A stretch of DNA of 64,000 bases from an uncultured Candidatus Saccharibacteria bacterium (lineage in GTDB: Bacteria > Patescibacteriota > Saccharimonadia > Saccharimonadales > 2-12-FULL-41-12). Position 1 is the first letter of the stretch, and every line of letters starts with the position of its first letter. This document shows positions 6,538 through 36,039 of this stretch, piece by piece. The translations under genes were made by a program, and so were the position numbers. The notes under the pieces were generated by a model, which worked only from the letters and a program-made list of their open reading frames with translations, was not told the DNA's origin and did no database searches. The DNA lies in the NCBI GenBank assembly GCA_964521095.1, contig CAZFPJ010000002.1, positions 21,108 through 85,107 of the forward strand, written 5' to 3'.

Positions 6538-7647
6538 TTATCTAGATCCCTCAAGCACTTCATTATAGACGGCCTTGGTTTGTTTCGCCATTTTATCCCA
6601 CGAATATTTTTTGACCTGGTTTTGGCCGTTTTTAATTAACTTTTCTTTCAGCCTGTCATTGCGTAGGAGTTCGTTAATAGCTCGGGCGATGTCTGGTATC
6701 TCTAGTGGGTCAAAATAAGATGCACCATCACCAAATACCTCCGGCAGGCAAGTTGCGTTGCTGCTAACTAGTGCGCAGTTGTTCTGCATTGCCTCTAGCC
6801 CAGGTATGGCAAACCCCTCGCTCAAAGAGGGCAATACATAGGCCTCGGCGTTTTTATGTAGCCAGCGCATCTCTGGGTCGGGCACAAATCCATAAAACAA
6901 GATAGAGTCTTTGACGGGGCTATTTTGCGCCCAGCCTTCTAGCTCTTTGTAGTATTGTTCCTTTTTGCCTCCCAAAATTAGCTGGAGGTCAGGTTGAGTT
7001 TCTTTAACAATTTCGAATGCCTGAATCAATCGCTTTATGTTTTTGTGCGGAAAAGGGCTCCCCACATGAAAGATAAAGGGTTTTTTGGCGCCTTTTAGGG
7101 CAACTGGTTTTACAGACGAGTCCAGGTGGTCGCTAGACTCGTGGGTCACCCGTAGCTTTTGCTCTGTGCCGGGGTAACTTTGCTCAATATCGTCTGCTAC
7201 AAACTGGGTCGGAGTTATTATTCGTGCAGATTTTTTGTGTGCCCACCACATCATTAGCTGGTAAGCGTTCATCCGCAAAAAATGCACCCACTTCGGTAGC
7301 TTTCCGGGGCGAGTATAGCGGAGCATAGTTAGGTCGTGCGTTGTTGTAATGGTTTTGCCAAAATATAACAGAGGTTGTTGGGTCATTGTAAAGTGCACCA
7401 AATCTGGCTTTAACGAATACAGCTGGCGAGGAAAAGCTAGTTGGTCAACCGGATTCAAGCTAAATTGCTTAAACCTGCAGGGCAGGGTTGTAAAGTTTGG
7501 GTTGCTTGGCTTCCATGTGTCGTCAGGCTCTAACAAGATGGTGTATCTGTTGGCTGTGTCCGCTTTTTGCAAATGCTCAATCAGCCGGTCCGTGTATCGT
7601 CCGGTGCTAGAGCGCCTAATCCGAGCGTCTATAACTATGTGCTTCAT
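6538..7647 (-). CDS. Glycosyltransferase, GT-B fold (GT1/GT4 family)
   Basis: 369 aa. The C-terminal motif PSLSEGFAIPGLEAMQNNCALVSSNATCLPEVFGD matches the E-x7-E type GT4 signature. Confidence 0.85.
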   Translation of the reverse strand: MKHIVIDARIRRSSTGRYTDRLIEHLQKADTANRYTILLEPDDTWKPSNPNFTTLPCRFKQFSLNPVDQLAFPRQLYSLKPDLVHFTMTQQPLLYFGKTITTTHDLTMLRYTRPGKLPKWVHFLRMNAYQLMMWWAHKKSARIITPTQFVADDIEQSYPGTEQKLRVTHESSDHLDSSVKPVALKGAKKPFIFHVGSPFPHKNIKRLIQAFEIVKETQPDLQLILGGKKEQYYKELEGWAQNSPVKDSILFYGFVPDPEMRWLHKNAEAYVLPSLSEGFAIPGLEAMQNNCALVSSNATCLPEVFGDGASYFDPLEIPDIARAINELLRNDRLKEKLIKNGQNQVKKYSWDKMAKQTKAVYNEVLEGSR

Positions 7648-31480: not shown

Positions 31481-31894
31481 ATGCAATTACATAGAAAAAC
31501 AATGGCACAGGTGTTTTTTTTCGGACTAGTTGGCGTCGTTAGTTTGCTAATTGATGTCGGGATTACAAAGTATCTGTATTCTCTTTTAGGTATGCCTGCG
31601 TATTTAGCTAGCGCCTTCGGATTTCTTTCGGGGTTTTTATTTAACTTCCCCATGAATAGAAGTAGAGTCTTTAGACACACTAACAAAAGCCGGTTTGTAT
31701 TGCGAAATCAGGTAATTATGTTCCTGTCTTTGAGCTTGTTCAACCTTGTATTTACAAGTTTTTTTGTAGACACCCTAGTGCGCCTTAATCTTTTAGATAT
31801 TGTTTATGCAAAGATTTTAGCTACTGCAATAATTGCAACATGGAACTTTACGATATTTAAATGGGTTATTTTTTCGAAGAGCAAGTCTAATTAG
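31481..31894 (+). CDS. GtrA-family small membrane protein
   Basis: 137 aa with 4 TM helices. The motif [11 protein letters not shown] is typical of GtrA. It is divergent from the GtrB-like gene. Confidence 0.8.
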
Positions 31895-32748
31895 TTGAGG
31901 CTGGACAGATATTCGCCGTAGCCGGATTTTTTTAGGGGTTGGGCTAGTTGGGTTAGCTGGTCTTGGTTTATAAAGCCTTGCTCGTAGGCTATCCGCTCTG
32001 GGGCGCCAATGATTTGCCCGGTTCTTTTTTGCAAAACTCGTACGTAGTCTGTAGCATCTGTGAGGCTGTCTATAGTGCCGGTGTCGAGCCAGACATCGCC
32101 GTCGTTGAGAGTTGTGACTTTGAGCTTGCCTCGTCGCAAGTATTCGGCGTTGACAGATGTTATCTCTAGCTCGCCACGGTGACTTGGCTGGACATTTTTG
32201 GCAATTTCTACTACATCGTTGTCGTAAAAATAGAGGCCAACTACCGCATGGTTGGACTTTGGTTGGGCTGGCTTTTCTTCTATGCTTATGGCTTCCATGT
32301 TTTGGTTGAACTCTACGACGCCATAACGCTCTGGGTCGGACACTCTGTAGGCAAAAACTACTCCGCCGTCTGGGTCTGTGCATTCTGCAAGCGATTCGTC
32401 TAGCTCTGGGCCGTGGAAGATGTTGTCGCCCAGTATGAGGGCAACTTTGTCGCTACCTATGAACTCTTCGCCAATGATGAACGCCTGGGCCAGACCATCT
32501 GGAGAGGGCTGAACAGCATAGCTGATACTAATGCCCCAGTCCGAGCCATCGCCCAGTAGGCTCTTGAAGGCTGTTTGGTCGTGCGGAGTGGTGATGATAA
32601 GGATATCTTTGATTCCAGCCTGCATGAGGGTGCTGAGGGGGTAATAAACCATGGGTTTGTCGTAGATAGGCATGAGTTGCTTGCTGATGCCTTTTGTAAT
32701 GGGGTGGAGCCGTGTGCCTGAACCGCCCGCTAAAATAATGCCTTTCAT
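31891..32748 (-). CDS. rfbA: Glucose-1-phosphate thymidylyltransferase
   Basis: [42 protein letters not shown] is the canonical RmlA N-terminus. Confidence 0.95.
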
Positions 32749-33023
32749 CCCGTTAGAGCCTCCGTGTAATTTTTTATACGATTTCTTAAATAACGCTTTC
32801 CCATGCCTGATTTTAGATACCTTTCTCGTGCGTAAGCATCTTTTTTATTAAGACACGCTTCATAGTATATCAGTTCATAGGGTCCACGATGGCTGGTGTA
32901 TGTACTCTTGCCATCGGAGTGTTCTTTGTAGCGCTTTTTTAAGTCAGAAGTGTAACCTGGATAGAATTGCCCGGTTTTGTTTACTATTACATGCACATAC
33001 TGCATGGCTCTAACGGGATTCAT
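32745..33023 (-). CDS. Stand-alone GIY-YIG nuclease-domain protein
   Basis: 92 aa with [27 protein letters not shown] (GIY..YxG) and a conserved ERYLK. Its stop overlaps the rfbA start by 4 nt. Confidence 0.85.
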
Positions 33024-33044
33024 CTTGTTAGTGTCTCCTTAGTT

Positions 33045-33260
33045 CTAGATAGTTGATTTGTGTTCTACTGGAACACTGGTTAACTTTTTTGGCATCGGAG
33101 AGTTCTTTGACGCATCAAGAACCTCGAGGCCAATAACATGCCCGTCGGCAGAATAGTCGACCAATAGGTCCTTGGTAATTTTTTTGCTAGACTTGTAGGA
33201 AGCTTTTTCGTTTAAGCTGATGTACATAGCGTCTATTTTGTCGTCATAAGTTATCTTCAT
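33045..33260 (-). CDS. DUF2283-family small protein (putative antitoxin partner)
   Basis: 71 aa. The sequence MKITYDDKIDAMYISL...DGHVIGLEVLDAS is typical of DUF2283. Confidence 0.7.
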   Translation of the reverse strand: MKITYDDKIDAMYISLNEKASYKSSKKITKDLLVDYSADGHVIGLEVLDASKNSPMPKKLTSVPVEHKSTI

Positions 33261-33517
33261 TATTCTCCTACCAGATATTGCGTTATTACAATAGTCTTAT
33301 TATCCTCTTTTTTGCAGACAACCTCAAGAACTTCCTCCAAGAATTTCTTGCGAAAGACTAATCTGTCCCTGTAAGATGTTTCATTTGTATCAGGGTTCTT
33401 AATGGTCTCTAGCACCATGCTTCTTTTGATATTTTGGCGGTGCTTTAGGCGTTCTAGCGCATGGTCTGAGAATTCAATATTCATTTGTTTAGGTATTTTG
33501 CTAGGTCTTCTTTCCAA
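33260..33517 (-). CDS. DUF4258-family small protein (putative toxin partner)
   Basis: 85 aa with the DUF4258 signature FSDHALERLKHRQI-like region. It overlaps DUF2283 by 1 nt (TAATG) and the rfbD 3' end by 37 nt. Confidence 0.7.
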   Translation of the reverse strand: MERRPSKIPKQMNIEFSDHALERLKHRQNIKRSMVLETIKNPDTNETSYRDRLVFRKKFLEEVLEVVCKKEDNKTIVITQYLVGE

Positions 33518-34326
33518 TCTTTCGAAGCAAAACCGGTTGCTTGGATTTTGGATAAGTCCAAAGTACTTTGAAGTGGGCGAGGCGCAATGCCCTGTTTGTC
33601 TTTGAAGTACTCCTGAGTTGTGGTGTTTGTGACAGTTAGATCATCTCGGCCAAGAACTTTAAATATCTGGCGGGTAATATCTGCCCAGCTGGCAGATTCT
33701 CCGCTGTTAGAGACATTGTAGGTGCCGTAAGCGTGGTTGTTTGTTAGTAGGTGGTCAATTGCCCGGACAAGTTCGTTAGTAAAGGTGAGTCGGCCAACTT
33801 GGTCGTGTACAACTGTTGGTGAGATGTCTTTTTGGGCTAGCCCTGCCATGGTGCGAACAAAGTTGTTGCCTTCGCCGATGACCCAAGAAGTTCGTAGCAG
33901 GTAGTGTTTTGGCGCAAGACCCAAGATAGCATCGCCACAGGCTTTGCTGGCTCCATAAACGCTTAGCGGAGACAGTGGCTCGTCTTCTGTGTGATTGTCT
34001 TTGGCGCCGTCAAAAACATAGTCGCTAGAGATGTGTACCAGAGTAATGTCGTTTTGGATGGCGACTTTTGTAAGGTAGCCAACAGCAGTAGCATTGACGC
34101 GCCACGAAGCCACTCGGCCCTCTGGCGTTTCGGCGCCGTCTACATTGGTGTAGGCTCCAGCATTTAGTATGTGAGTAATGCCCGACCAGTCATAGCCAGA
34201 CACGGATTCTGGATTGGTGATGTCTAGCTCGCTAATATCTGCTTTTTGAGCGTTGGGGTATTTGGTCTGTAAGGCTCGCCCGAGCTGTCCATTTGCGCCT
34301 GTTATAAAAAATTTGGAGTCGTCCAT
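33481..34326 (-). CDS. rfbD: dTDP-4-dehydrorhamnose reductase
   Basis: 281 aa with FITGANGQLG, ISSDYVFDG and YGASK. Confidence 0.9.
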   Translation of the reverse strand: MDDSKFFITGANGQLGRALQTKYPNAQKADISELDITNPESVSGYDWSGITHILNAGAYTNVDGAETPEGRVASWRVNATAVGYLTKVAIQNDITLVHISSDYVFDGAKDNHTEDEPLSPLSVYGASKACGDAILGLAPKHYLLRTSWVIGEGNNFVRTMAGLAQKDISPTVVHDQVGRLTFTNELVRAIDHLLTNNHAYGTYNVSNSGESASWADITRQIFKVLGRDDLTVTNTTTQEYFKDKQGIAPRPLQSTLDLSKIQATGFASKDWKEDLAKYLNK

Positions 34327-34327
34327 G

Positions 34328-34885
34328 CTAGTTTTTTATAGGGGTTATTTGGCTAAGAGGAGGGTGGTTTTTGTCTTTTTCGGAGATGAGATCGTCTGTG
34401 ATGGGGATAGGCCAGTCAATGCCAAGTGCTGGGTCTTGCAGGTTGACAAGAGTGTATTTGGCCTCTGGTGACCAATGGTCGTTGACAAGGTAGGTGTAGG
34501 TGACATTTTCTTCCATGGTTTGGTAGCCATTTGCTACGCCTTTTGGCACAAATACAGCGATGTCGGGCGTTACCTCTACGGTTAGGGTTTTGCCAAAGCT
34601 GGGGCCGTCGCGCAGGTCTACCCAAGCGCCAAAGACCTTGCCGTTGGCGACCGAGACAAACTTGTCCCATGGTTCTGCGTGCAAGCCACGGGCTACGCCC
34701 TTCTGCGCATTGTATGAAAAGTTGTTTTGAACGACCTCGAAGGCAGGAAGGCCAAGTGCCTCCATCTTTTCTTTTTGATAGTTTTCTTTAAACCAGCCTC
34801 GGTTATCGCCGTGAACAGCTAGGTCTACTACAAAAAATCCTGGTATCTTGGCTTCTTTGACAGCTAAAGTTTTTTCTAACTCCAT
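34328..34885 (-). CDS. rfbC: dTDP-4-dehydrorhamnose 3,5-epimerase
   Basis: 185 aa with DNRGWFKE and RGLHAEPWDKFVSV. Confidence 0.93.
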   Translation of the reverse strand: MELEKTLAVKEAKIPGFFVVDLAVHGDNRGWFKENYQKEKMEALGLPAFEVVQNNFSYNAQKGVARGLHAEPWDKFVSVANGKVFGAWVDLRDGPSFGKTLTVEVTPDIAVFVPKGVANGYQTMEENVTYTYLVNDHWSPEAKYTLVNLQDPALGIDWPIPITDDLISEKDKNHPPLSQITPIKN

Positions 34886-34890
34886 GGGTT

Positions 34891-36039
<1,149 letters not shown>

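Follow-up and report, generated by a model that had tools for sequence, protein, structure and literature searches.

GIY-YIG enzymes hydrolyse DNA, and Slx1 cuts branched DNA; to our knowledge, no GIY-YIG enzyme carries out strand transfer. All classes of mobile DNA that we know of use DDE, HUH, serine, tyrosine or Cas1 enzymes, reverse transcription, or homing. Phage homing genes (segA-G of T4 and the relatives of I-TevI) resemble the GIY-YIG gene described here, which also lies between conserved genes, is expressed from host signals and is variably present among relatives. The protein itself matches the UPF0213/YhbQ/Slx1 branch in sequence and in predicted fold (PDB 1zg2, 1ywl; Slx1, 6seh and 4xlg). 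Like the UPF0213 branch, it is minimal (~90-100 aa) and consists of a catalytic domain only.

Insertion sequences with their MITEs, and the REP/RAYT system (REPINs), offer a second comparison. They share with our locus a short nuclease gene bracketed by inverted repeats and dispersed ORF-less palindromic units, in which a conserved outer core is joined to a variable but complementary inner stem. Unlike theirs, the protein of our unit does not belong to the DDE, HUH, serine or tyrosine enzymes. REPs lack the flanking duplication seen here and, in contrast to the genes of insertion sequences, our ORF appears to be supplied with its start and stop codons by the target together with the duplicated copy. 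At 271 bp the unit is very small; no autonomous insertion sequence of this size is known to us. Integron cassettes are likewise promoter-less ORFs with palindromic ends, and the element ends GTTAGAG and CTCTAAC resemble the attC core sites GTTRRRY and RYYYAAC. We rejected an attC identity: the core order is the reverse of that in an attC hairpin (R''-L''...L'-R'), there are no arrays, and no integrase occurs among the called neighbours. Unlike cassettes, the units are single and sit on the start codons of housekeeping genes. We regard the resemblance as coincidental.

The other two genes at the locus recall type II toxin-antitoxin modules of the RelE/ParE (BECR-fold) kind, being two small, co-oriented, overlapping genes that occur in varied contexts. 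Pfam family DUF4258 overlaps Ntox49 of the colicin-like branch. It is entered with unknown activity and no references in Gerdes (2025; PMC11980606), where the order for the family is antitoxin then toxin; the order here is toxin then partner. The partner here is DUF2283, the FseA/QseM domain, known from the regulation of integrative elements.

An insertion in the rml operon

We analyzed a 64-kb stretch of Saccharibacteria DNA (the window). Its minus strand carries, in order, rmlB, rmlC, rmlD, DUF4258, DUF2283, a GIY-YIG gene and rmlA (Table 1). The same order, under rfb names, and the same three domain families had been proposed in a sequence-only reading of this DNA. The ORFs of the window bear out the order, and all three small proteins exceed their Pfam cut-offs. 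Searches with Pfam and NCBIfam models placed RmlA and RmlB above equivalog cut-offs and RmlC and RmlD above Pfam cut-offs only.

Table 1. Annotated features of the rml locus, listed from the 5′ end of the minus strand
Feature	Position in window	Strand	Evidence or description
rmlB	34999-36009	minus	TIGR01181, 469.8 bits (cut-off 365.1)
rmlC	34328-34885	minus	Pfam, 149.5 bits; TIGRFAM equivalog, 120.8 bits, below cut-off of 155.75
rmlD (dTDP-4-dehydrorhamnose reductase)	33481-34326	minus	Pfam RmlD_sub_bind, 205.9 bits; TIGR01214, 196.6 bits, below cut-off of 224.05
DUF4258 gene, 74 aa, putative toxin	33260-33484	minus	PF14076, 44.7 bits (cut-off 25), E = 1.7e-11
DUF2283 gene, 71 aa, putative antitoxin/partner	33045-33260	minus	PF10049, 54.4 bits (cut-off 23), E = 1.4e-14
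21-nt spacer	33024-33044	minus	AACTAAGGAGACACTAACAAG; between DUF2283 and GIY-YIG; contains AAGGAG
GIY-YIG ORF, 92 aa, UPF0213/Slx1-like branch	32745-33023	minus	PF01541, 45.9 bits (cut-off 22.6), E = 7e-12
Upstream TGAA flanking direct repeat, 4 nt	33019-33022	minus	with A33023, makes the ATG of the GIY-YIG ORF
T-type GIY-YIG mini-element, 271 bp	32748-33018	minus	runs from TCCCGTTAGAGCC to GGCTCTAACGGGA
5′ terminal inverted-repeat arm	33006-33019	minus	ATCCCGTTAGAGCC; within codons 2-6 (N-P-V-R-A)
3′ terminal inverted-repeat arm	32747-32760	minus	GGCTCTAACGGGAT; within the last codons (E-A-L-T-G)
Downstream TGAA direct repeat	32744-32747	minus	its TGA is the GIY-YIG stop
rmlA (glucose-1-phosphate thymidylyltransferase)	31891-32748	minus	TIGR01207, 452.9 bits (cut-off 360.65)

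The B-C-D-A order is kept in ~75 Saccharibacteria loci. As the rmlD/rmlA junction is tight in 46 of 74 scorable related Saccharibacteria species, the block of three genes is an insertion into a conserved rmlBCDA operon. Synteny comparison, which the sequence-only reading had suggested, showed that the block is missing from most relatives and is not universal. The junction is empty in L010, the nearest relative by RmlB (92% identity). We did not find an empty allele in the same species; six contigs with exact copies of RmlA share the identical arrangement. G+C content is 0.38-0.40 in the block versus 0.48-0.51 in the flanking rml genes.

Empty junctions usually consist of an ATGA overlap, mostly within ...GGAGnnnnnnn(A/G)TGAAAGG. 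In the window, rmlA begins with ATGAAAGG, the conserved target sequence in junctions compared among 50 relatives. The 3′ tail of rmlD is shortened, reading Y-L-N-K-stop versus roughly Y-L-K-G-E-x-x-stop at the empty junctions of relatives. Other genomes carry unrelated cargo at this junction (NUDIX, NYN, 23S_rRNA_IVP, LigT-like, DUF7822 and DUF218), which argues that the junction merely tolerates insertions and happens to suit as a target. The inserted genes are probably co-transcribed with the rml genes; a promoter and terminator scan gave no signal above chance and is uninformative on this point.

The explanation we favor, with a probability of roughly 0.7, is that two unrelated selfish modules have piled up in the 0.77-kb block: a toxin-antitoxin-like cassette and a start-codon-capturing GIY-YIG mobile element. 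Both would sit on the ancestral ATGA stop/start overlap of rmlD and rmlA. The first module would comprise DUF4258 followed by its partner DUF2283, and this cassette would have replaced the last few codons of rmlD. The second would be a 271-bp mobile element whose only gene encodes a GIY-YIG nuclease (92 aa) from the Slx1/UPF0213 branch.

The GIY-YIG unit and its relatives

The GIY-YIG protein matches PDB 1zg2 with E = 2e-9. An AlphaFold2 model (pLDDT 85) had UPF0213 proteins and the Slx1 nuclease domain as its top Foldseek matches (1zg2, 6seh, 1ywl, 4xlg). The catalytic domain covers the protein almost end to end, with no DNA-binding domain. Among candidate catalytic residues, Y21, R31, H35 and E67 are invariant in 30 homologues, and Y11 and N81 are present in at least 90%. 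The window copy keeps Y21, R31, H35, E67 and N81. Its H11 replaces the near-invariant GIY tyrosine and its P22 replaces T22; both lie in catalytic motifs, and each is unique or nearly so among 114 homologues, 105 of which have the YVY motif and 105 the YTG motif. Due to these two changes (Y11H and T22P), the window copy may be weakened. The protein is predicted to be a nuclease, and it is a candidate for the enzyme that mobilizes its own element. The N-terminus MNPVR[AT] and C-terminus [AG]LTG are kept in most of the 120 closest homologues.

We set the element boundaries by comparison with ~75 full and ~27 mini units; the units in L083 and L084 are also 271 bp. As the element spans TCCCGTTAGAG to CTCTAACGGGA, its inverted repeats fall within the gene's initial and final codons. 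A repeat search found the two arms to be complementary at 14 of 14 nt (100%) and to be the sole such pair in the window. A third match resembling a terminal inverted repeat (7526-7539, 2 mismatches) was treated as chance because it lacks a partner arm and lies inside a gene. The 64-kb window contains one GIY-YIG unit and no mini unit. At the downstream end, the GIY-YIG stop and the rmlA start overlap by 4 nt (ATGA), as the sequence-only reading had described, and the last A of the element (32748) with the TG of the downstream repeat restores the rmlA start codon.

Upstream, the AAGGAG in the 21-nt spacer is a Shine-Dalgarno sequence for the GIY-YIG ORF. Element 3′ ends read GGAGGCTCTAACGGGATG, and empty junctions have GGAG, ~7 nt and ATG. 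We interpret the spacer, which has GGAG, 11 nt and ATG, as possibly what remains of an older unit's 3′ end; alternatively, it could be the ancestral tail of rmlD.

These features suggest how such an element could enter an operon. Insertion would occur between the A and the TGAA of ATGAA, at the start codon of a host gene, and would duplicate TGAA. The nuclease gene would borrow the ribosome-binding site and ATG of the host gene, and the duplicated TGA would provide its stop. The last A of the element and the duplicated TG would form a new ATG for the host gene, in this case rmlA. Since the host gene would regain its ATG from the element end, it would be translated by stop/start coupling, and the operon would survive. 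The conserved ends of 11 bp may be what the nuclease recognizes, perhaps folded into a hairpin or cruciform; the cutting of branched DNA by Slx1 would fit such recognition. The nuclease may also promote the movement of full copies as well as of mini copies without an ORF.

The wider family of units carries much of the evidence. The terminal helix of 13 bp, compared over 78 units, is paired in 87% of cells and shows 153 double-sided changes, with almost no G·U pairs, and none of 500 shuffles reached the observed covariation score; pairs 1-9 were required during unit selection, so that only pairs 10-13 are unbiased. Approximately 27 clean ORF-less mini units with the same ends are 29-164 bp long. 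They occur in tandem with full copies (L082, L086, L087, L105) or dispersed (L033, L040, L139, L181), with up to five units inside 5.9 kb in L181. Their density is ~15-fold higher in loci with a GIY-YIG gene as anchor. Exact 4-nt flanking repeats border 19 of 53 mini units of 30-130 bp, versus a mean of 2.9 and a maximum of 9 in 2,000 shuffles, and comprise eight different tetranucleotides.

For the full copies, the flanks are less clear. T-type units with a non-TGAA flank on at least one side gave ~7 matching versus ~6 mismatching pairs when counted by hand, and matching flanks are mostly absent from C-type full copies. The TGAA repeat of full copies could reflect selection that maintains ATGA at the two ends, and not an insertion footprint. 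Of the 59 full copies ending in (A/G)TGA, 46 lead into an ORF of 50 codons or more whose start is exactly that codon, and dozens of different genes lie downstream. At least five unrelated gene junctions are used, with only ATGAA in common. One such site, between CTP_transf and PMM, is filled in L084 and empty in the window. Searches of Rfam with the region and five loci rich in mini units gave no relevant match, and we found no description of such an element in the papers that could be searched.

We considered whether a free-standing homing endonuclease of the phage T4 Seg/Mob type might cut empty rmlD/rmlA junctions and be copied in by double-strand-break repair, with the inverted repeats incidental. 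The GIY-YIG catalytic domain, the occupation of the same junction in three distant lineages (the window, L082 and L087), and the presence of both filled and empty states among species all favor this possibility. So does the conservation of the nuclease, which exceeds that of the flanking Rml proteins (71% versus 50-64% in L082). Nonetheless, homing appears unlikely. Unlike the phage homing genes, this family has no DNA-binding domain within its 92 aa for reading a long target, and it uses many targets, the unrelated sites described above. Its inverted repeats covary as DNA, and ORF-less derivatives that share these ends and carry 4-nt flanking repeats would not be expected from homing. A survey of insertions in CPR rRNA genes also judged its GIY-YIG genes to be unlike homing genes (PMC11270868); these genes, found in non-intron insertions, might belong to the same family. 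Thus, where the sequence-only reading took stand-alone GIY-YIG domains as typical of homing or selfish elements, the selfish and mobile part stands, but a small protein without a DNA-binding domain in an inverted-repeat element is not a typical homing endonuclease.

The units might instead be moved by a conventional but unlinked transposase (DDE or similar), with the GIY-YIG gene as a passenger in a MITE-like shell; we consider this no more probable than homing. Terminal inverted repeats with a 4-bp duplication are the classic DDE signature, and because GIY-YIG enzymes are not known to perform strand transfer, a 4-bp duplication made by such an enzyme alone would be without precedent. Against a passenger role, the ORF occupies precisely the whole unit, and more than 100 homologues, at 53-74% identity, have the repeats in their first and last codons, implying that gene and ends have long co-evolved. 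The sole ORF of the unit has a GIY-YIG domain, and no DDE, HUH, serine or tyrosine recombinase is encoded. Inspection of ORFs revealed no transposase gene adjoining any of the ~75 full copies, and the mini units are enriched near GIY-YIG genes. A DDE_3 gene lies ~800 nt from the DUF2283 locus in L193, but as L193 has no GIY-YIG unit, this gene gives the transposase explanation no real support.

Less probable still is that the GIY-YIG protein is a domesticated housekeeping nuclease similar to E. coli YhbQ, annotated in RefSeq as a DNA damage response nuclease, and that the inverted repeats make up a regulatory or RNA structure such as a processing site or coupling device. The family is strongly conserved, with catalytic motifs intact in nearly all homologues and 3,286 cluster representatives matching at E <= 1e-10, and the window has a single copy. 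Yet among 80 rml-anchored loci from related species spanning ~6 kb on each side of rmlD, a homologue is present in one (L026, 40% identity), and the position of the gene varies between genomes. The near absence of G·U pairs in the 78 units fits pairing as DNA rather than as RNA, and no Rfam family matched. The E. coli yhbQ product is 27% identical, and that gene has no inverted repeat spanning its ORF, whereas the window family has conserved ends, flanking repeats and mini copies, with the ORF-less copies sharing both ends and flanking repeats.

More tentatively, and with the odds somewhat against it, the GIY-YIG unit could represent an undescribed class of prokaryotic mobile element. Such an element would be autonomous, 271-280 bp long and able to recognize its own 11-13-bp inverted ends. 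It would mobilize ORF-less copies, duplicate 4 bp and take its start and stop codons from the captured start of a host gene.

The DUF4258-DUF2283 pair and the independence of the modules

The sequence-only reading had started DUF4258 37 nt inside rfbD, which holds only for the longest ORF (TTG at 33517) and is probably an artefact. Most likely, the gene starts at ATG 33484, within an ATGA shared with the rmlD stop. This start is likelier because gene prediction run independently on the source contig returns a 74-aa protein, because the Pfam model starts at residue 5 of the 74-aa form, and because homologues in L007 and P0002 start there with M-[KN]-I-E-F-S-E-H. The PF14076 match spans profile positions 1-68 of 71. 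The TAATG overlap of DUF4258 and DUF2283 was as previously described, with 1 nt shared. The cassette lacks its own ribosome-binding site, so its translation probably depends on coupling to rmlD. We looked for matching inverted ends on the cassette and found none.

Homologues of DUF4258 occur in L007 (57% identity), P0002, L189 and L191. Close homologues of DUF2283 are found in unrelated, non-rml contexts (L189, L191, L193), always behind a small overlapping ORF, and two of the small ORFs that precede DUF2283 elsewhere are 48-52% identical to the window DUF4258. In L007, L189, L191, L193 and L183, a small ORF lies directly ahead of DUF2283; the overlap is 1 nt in L007, as in the window, and 4 nt in the other four. 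DUF2283 also occurs on small plasmids. As the upstream ORFs of the L183 and L182 plasmids do not match DUF4258 (PF14076), DUF2283 is not exclusively partnered with DUF4258.

These arrangements support the proposal that the two genes form a toxin-antitoxin-like pair, and the absence of references for DUF4258 in Gerdes (2025; PMC11980606) agrees with its description as experimentally uncharacterized. DUF4258 is a putative ribonuclease toxin of the BECR (Barnase-EndoU-ColicinE5/D-RelE) fold, an assignment that comes from the literature, and the pair is predicted to have toxic activity. Literature searches yielded no description of DUF2283 as an antitoxin, and PDB searches by sequence and by profile gave no significant match to either protein. 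A tblastn search of plasmids with DUF4258 gave no match. Scans of viral contigs found neither DUF4258 nor DUF2283 and only four weak relatives of the GIY-YIG protein, which also gave two weak tblastn matches in phage records. These sparse or absent matches indicate that the modules of all three genes are not mainly viral.

The sequence-only reading had treated the three genes as one module. This did not hold up, as the pair and the nuclease gene occur separately, both at this junction and in many unrelated places. At the rmlD/rmlA junction, L007 carries DUF4258 and DUF2283 (57% and 71% identity) and no GIY-YIG ORF, and L082 and L087 carry the GIY-YIG gene without the pair. Other close homologues of the GIY-YIG gene lie between CTP_transf and PMM, between PMM and CTP_transf, between RNase HII and UPF0102, and inside a type IV pilus operon. 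We also considered a decayed GIY-YIG element as the origin of the 265-nt spacer in L007 and rejected this, as the spacer's local alignment score was 17 versus a shuffle mean of 18; the resemblance of its last 19-25 nt before rmlA to the element 3′ end is suggestive only.

It is thus very improbable that the three genes are a single three-component addiction or defense system selected to stabilize or protect the glycan locus: although they are tightly packed in one direction with no internal terminator-like site on the coding strand, and L007 may once have had all three (a similarity that is not significant by score), the components are apart far more often than together, none of the three proteins matched a known defense family or any other entry in PADLOC and PHROGs, and the junction holds unrelated cargo in other species.

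Implications for streamlined genomes

With the block read as two unrelated selfish modules, the best view of it is as a set of parasites tolerated at a target that is conserved and well expressed, and not as part of rhamnose synthesis. For the DUF4258 toxin family, which has thousands of members and no experimental data, the DUF4258-DUF2283 pair offers a specific partner. Start-codon capture would also have consequences for gene calling in CPR genomes; for example, N-termini would appear extended, start codons would be mis-set, and 33-aa "genes" would in fact be mini units.

Should the nuclease move its own element, the enzymes of mobile DNA would gain a hydrolytic GIY-YIG nuclease of the Slx1 type, carried by a very small autonomous element. 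Start-codon capture would let such an element live inside the essential operons of reduced CPR genomes without polar damage, and this design would explain how a parasite persists inside the operons of streamlined genomes.

Insertion at the rmlD/rmlA junction

The window is Saccharibacteria (TM7, CPR) DNA. The best relatives of its RmlD all come from Saccharibacteria metagenome-assembled genomes (57-73% identity), and the window DNA is also present on an 85-kb Logan contig. Between rmlD and rmlA lie three small genes, hereafter the block. Pfam bore out the family names assigned in the sequence-only reading: DUF4258 scored 44.7 bits (curated cut-off 25), DUF2283 54.4 bits (cut-off 23) and GIY-YIG 45.9 bits (cut-off 22.6). 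Two of the tight junctions that it described were also found in the sequence, TAATG between DUF4258 and DUF2283 and ATGA between GIY-YIG and rmlA, while DUF2283 and GIY-YIG are separated by a 21-nt spacer containing AAGGAG. The 37-nt overlap claimed for DUF4258 and rmlD probably does not stand, as it requires a TTG start at 33517. There is better support for a start at the ATG at 33484, whose overlap with the rmlD stop reads ATGA, because the gene call on the source contig is 74 aa, the Pfam alignment agrees and homologues start M-[KN]-I-E-F-S-E-H.

Genes of the rml operon in the window
Feature	Position	Strand	Basis
rmlB	34999-36009	minus	ORF call
rmlC	34328-34885	minus	ORF call
rmlD	33481-34326	minus	ORF call
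three small ORFs	between rmlD and rmlA	minus	ORF call
rmlA	31891-32748	minus	ORF call

We retrieved 80 rmlD loci, each from a different Saccharibacteria species, and searched each for the four Rml and three small proteins. The gene order B-C-D-A was nearly universal, and the rmlD-rmlA distance was tight in 46 of the 74 scorable loci. At the nucleotide level, most tight junctions read ...GGAGnnnnnnn(A/G)TGAAAGG, with the rmlA start overlapping the stop of rmlD and the Shine-Dalgarno sequence of rmlA lying within the rmlD tail. The junction is empty in L010, the closest relative by RmlB (92%), and the G+C content of the block (0.38-0.40) is lower than that of the rml genes (0.48-0.51). This synteny check upheld the proposal that the block is an insertion.

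Other species carry other cargo between rmlD and rmlA: opposite-strand NUDIX genes, an NYN-domain gene, a 23S_rRNA_IVP gene, a LigT-like gene, DUF7822, DUF218 and a 4.3-kb insert. Among the rml-anchored loci (L002-L081), a co-oriented NUDIX gene lies between rmlB and rmlC in about 25 species, and about five have a zinc-ribbon NUDIX gene in the rmlD-rmlA gap, oriented against the operon. Thus, operon junctions generally tolerate insertions. The recurrence of NUDIX genes may reflect a functional tie to nucleotide-sugar metabolism rather than selfish DNA.

We also observed other irregularities at these loci. In the rmlB-rmlC spacer of the window (34886-35022, minus strand), a direct copy of the final 24 nt of rmlB (AAATACAAGGAGCTGGGAAGATGA) stands immediately ahead of rmlC, and about 89 nt of non-coding DNA separate the two copies. 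Relatives have either a tight rmlB-rmlC junction or one occupied by a NUDIX gene of about 182 aa, and the repeat looks like a mark left by an insertion or a deletion at this second rml junction. A 137-aa plus-strand ORF (31481-31894) converges on rmlA, overlapping its 3′ end (31891) by 4 nt; the rmlA gene of L087 likewise faces a convergent GtrA-like membrane gene (PF04138, 144 aa). The rml strand yielded no terminator-like site. In L026, the arms of a 17-nt inverted repeat, 82% complementary, enclose the 23S_rRNA_IVP (four-helix-bundle) gene at the rmlD/rmlA junction (6815-7324), which may be a further small ORF-in-a-stem element like those in rRNA intervening sequences. A divergent GIY-YIG gene (40% identity) is located 3 kb upstream.

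Two modules in the block

The three genes had been suggested to form one module. Instead, the block is two. Only L007 carries DUF4258 (57% identity) and DUF2283 (71%) at the rmlD/rmlA junction, and it has no GIY-YIG ORF there; L082 and L087 carry a GIY-YIG homologue at that junction without the pair. The nearest GIY-YIG homologues, all 71-73% identical, occupy these and several other contexts: between the CTP_transf and PMM genes (L084) or between PMM and CTP_transf (L086), within a type IV pilus operon (L083), and between RNase HII and UPF0102 (L092-L101). The L082 nuclease is 71% conserved, versus 50, 64, 64 and 62% for the flanking RmlB, C, D and A. Close DUF2283 homologues likewise occur in unrelated contexts, each behind a small ORF that overlaps by 4 nt, and the window's DUF4258 shares 48-52% identity with two of these ORFs. 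DUF2283 is also found on small Thermus, Geminocystis and Acidithiobacillus plasmids.

DUF4258 has been placed among BECR-fold RelE/ParE-type toxin families, with its activity listed as unknown and no references (PMC11980606), and in a colicin-like branch overlapping Ntox49 (2026 preprint). DUF2283 is the domain of FseA and QseM, which regulate an integrative conjugative element (PMC4755241). Searches by sequence found no solved structure for either protein, and neither matched defence or phage families. DUF4258–DUF2283 is a putative toxin–antitoxin cassette, a new example of an already known type.

Two further observations concern these modules. In the L087/L088 lineage, a single fused ORF of 494-514 aa (L087, 1470-3014) combines rmlC with rmlD; directly after it come a GIY-YIG unit and then a 100-nt ORF-less unit once called a 33-aa gene. 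In the window, the GIY-YIG gene (32908-32928) and the DUF2283 gene (33089-33109) have in common a 21-nt direct repeat (19/21 identical), which the two seem to read in different frames. The DUF2283 gene of L007 lacks this repeat, and we roughly estimate its chance expectation at ~3e-4.

Ends, copies and sites of the GIY-YIG unit

When gene ends were aligned, the GIY-YIG ORF started with ATGAATCCCGTTAGAGCC and finished with GGCTCTAACGGGATGA. In the window these are inverted repeats of each other, matching perfectly over 14 nt (33006-33019 and 32747-32760), the sole such pair in the 64 kb. At the protein level they correspond to the N-terminus MNPVR[AT] and the C-terminus [AG]LTG, both retained by most of the 120 closest homologues. 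Scanning metagenomes brought in 80 further loci. Among about 90 complete genes, the ends are conserved and the inner parts of the arms vary in complementary fashion (GCC/GGC, GAT/ATC, GACAG/CTGTC, GAAA/TTTC, ACCTC/GAGGT, CACG/CGTG and others).

Across 78 distinct units, 87% of the cells of the 13-bp terminal helix are paired. Double-sided changes number 153 versus 62 in shuffles, none of 500 shuffles reached the observed score, and sliding the register caused a sharp drop. Since pairs 1-9 were required for unit selection, only pairs 10-13 are unbiased; these four form in 71-78 of the 78 units, with many compensatory changes at three of them. The near absence of G·U pairs from the 78 units agrees better with identity of the two DNA ends than with an RNA stem.

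The same ends, TCCCG...CGGGA in T-type units, also bracket ORF-less mini units of ~30-130 bp. Some stand in tandem after a full copy, with TGAA common to both (L082, L086, L087 and L105), and others are scattered among further gene junctions (L033, L040, L082 between rmlC and rmlD, L139 twice and L181 four times). With ends defined as YCCCG...CGGGR and the four flanking bases compared, an exact 4-nt direct repeat flanks 19 of 53 candidate mini units (shuffle mean 2.9, maximum 9 in 2,000 shuffles), in eight versions: TGAA, TGGA, TTCA, TCCA, TTTA, CTTA, TTGA and CTCG. A filled site equals the empty site plus the unit plus 4 nt. At the CTP_transf/PMM junction, the window is empty (...TAAGCATGAAGAAA) and L084 is filled (...AAATGAA/TCCCG...CGGGA/TGAAGAAG); filled and empty rmlD/rmlA junctions show the same relation.

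Mini units in L164 (4746-4810), L181 (2156-2217) and L151 (8252-8317) have a common internal GGCAAGACGCCA(A/G)AGGCG..., an inner hairpin. As these come from different metagenomes, at least one MITE-like subfamily is widespread, beyond a local deletion product. A second subtype, C-type units (L111, L112, L120 and ~20 other loci), has ends CCCCG...CGGGG, a non-coding 5′ repeat ~16 nt upstream of its own internal ATG, and a protein starting MYYVYV; its flanks are mostly mismatched, with no tie to host start codons.

Among 75 distinct full copies, 59 end in (A/G)TGA, and in 46 of these 59 an ORF of at least 50 codons begins exactly at that codon. A long ORF ends at the 5′ ATGA in only 11 of 44. 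The general rule is therefore that the unit occupies a host gene's start codon; operon-internal junctions are a subset of such sites. In T-type units, the nuclease ATG would consist of the host's own A plus TG, the nuclease stop would be the TGA of the duplicated TGAA, and the host start codon would be rebuilt from the element's last A plus TG.

The GIY-YIG protein belongs to the UPF0213/YhbQ group (PDB 1zg2, E = 2e-9), and its AlphaFold2 model (pLDDT 85) matches 1zg2 and 1ywl as well as the nuclease domain of the structure-specific endonuclease Slx1. Candidate catalytic residues Y21, R31, H35 and E67 are invariant in 30 homologues, and Y11 and N81 are kept in at least 90%. In the window copy, H replaces the GIY tyrosine (Y11H) and P replaces T22. 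Among 114 homologues, each change is confined or nearly confined to this copy, which may therefore be weakened despite its perfect ends. A profile search of 1.84 billion cluster representatives returned 3,286 at E <= 1e-10. E. coli yhbQ encodes a protein 27% identical; we looked for an inverted repeat spanning that ORF and it was absent.

Possible history of the junction and comparison with known elements

The 21 nt before the GIY-YIG ATG (GGAG + 11 nt + ATG, with CTAAC within) agree with element 3′ ends (GGAGGCTCTAACGGGATG); in empty rmlD tails, GGAG is followed by ~7 nt. Just before rmlA, L007 reads TACACCTGGAGGGCCTAACAACATGA, close to the window's TACACGGAGGCTCTAACGGGATGA, with a match score that is not significant. 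A plausible order of events is that a unit first occupied the ATGAA of rmlA, that the toxin–antitoxin cassette then arrived beside it and trimmed the rmlD tail, and that the nuclease gene later decayed in the L007 lineage, an intact copy being present at the junction of the window's genome today. The 265-nt DUF2283-rmlA spacer of L007 also contains perfect hairpins at 7301-7341 (19-bp stem) and 7420-7455 (16-bp stem), and no other fetched locus has similar sequence.

The GIY-YIG unit mixes features of homing-endonuclease genes, insertion sequences with MITEs, and REP/RAYT systems, and fails one defining test of each. Unlike a homing endonuclease, its protein lacks a DNA-binding domain and the unit occurs at many sites; unlike an insertion sequence, it has no known transposase class; and unlike REP/RAYT, its enzyme is not HUH and it has a flanking duplication. 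A study of CPR rRNA genes reported GIY-YIG genes in non-intron insertions that do not resemble homing (PMC11270868), and we found no description of such a unit in the literature searched. The rml operon and both protein superfamilies are ordinary. We give a probability of roughly one in three (0.35) that the unit is a mobile element of a new class, with a GIY-YIG nuclease driving it.
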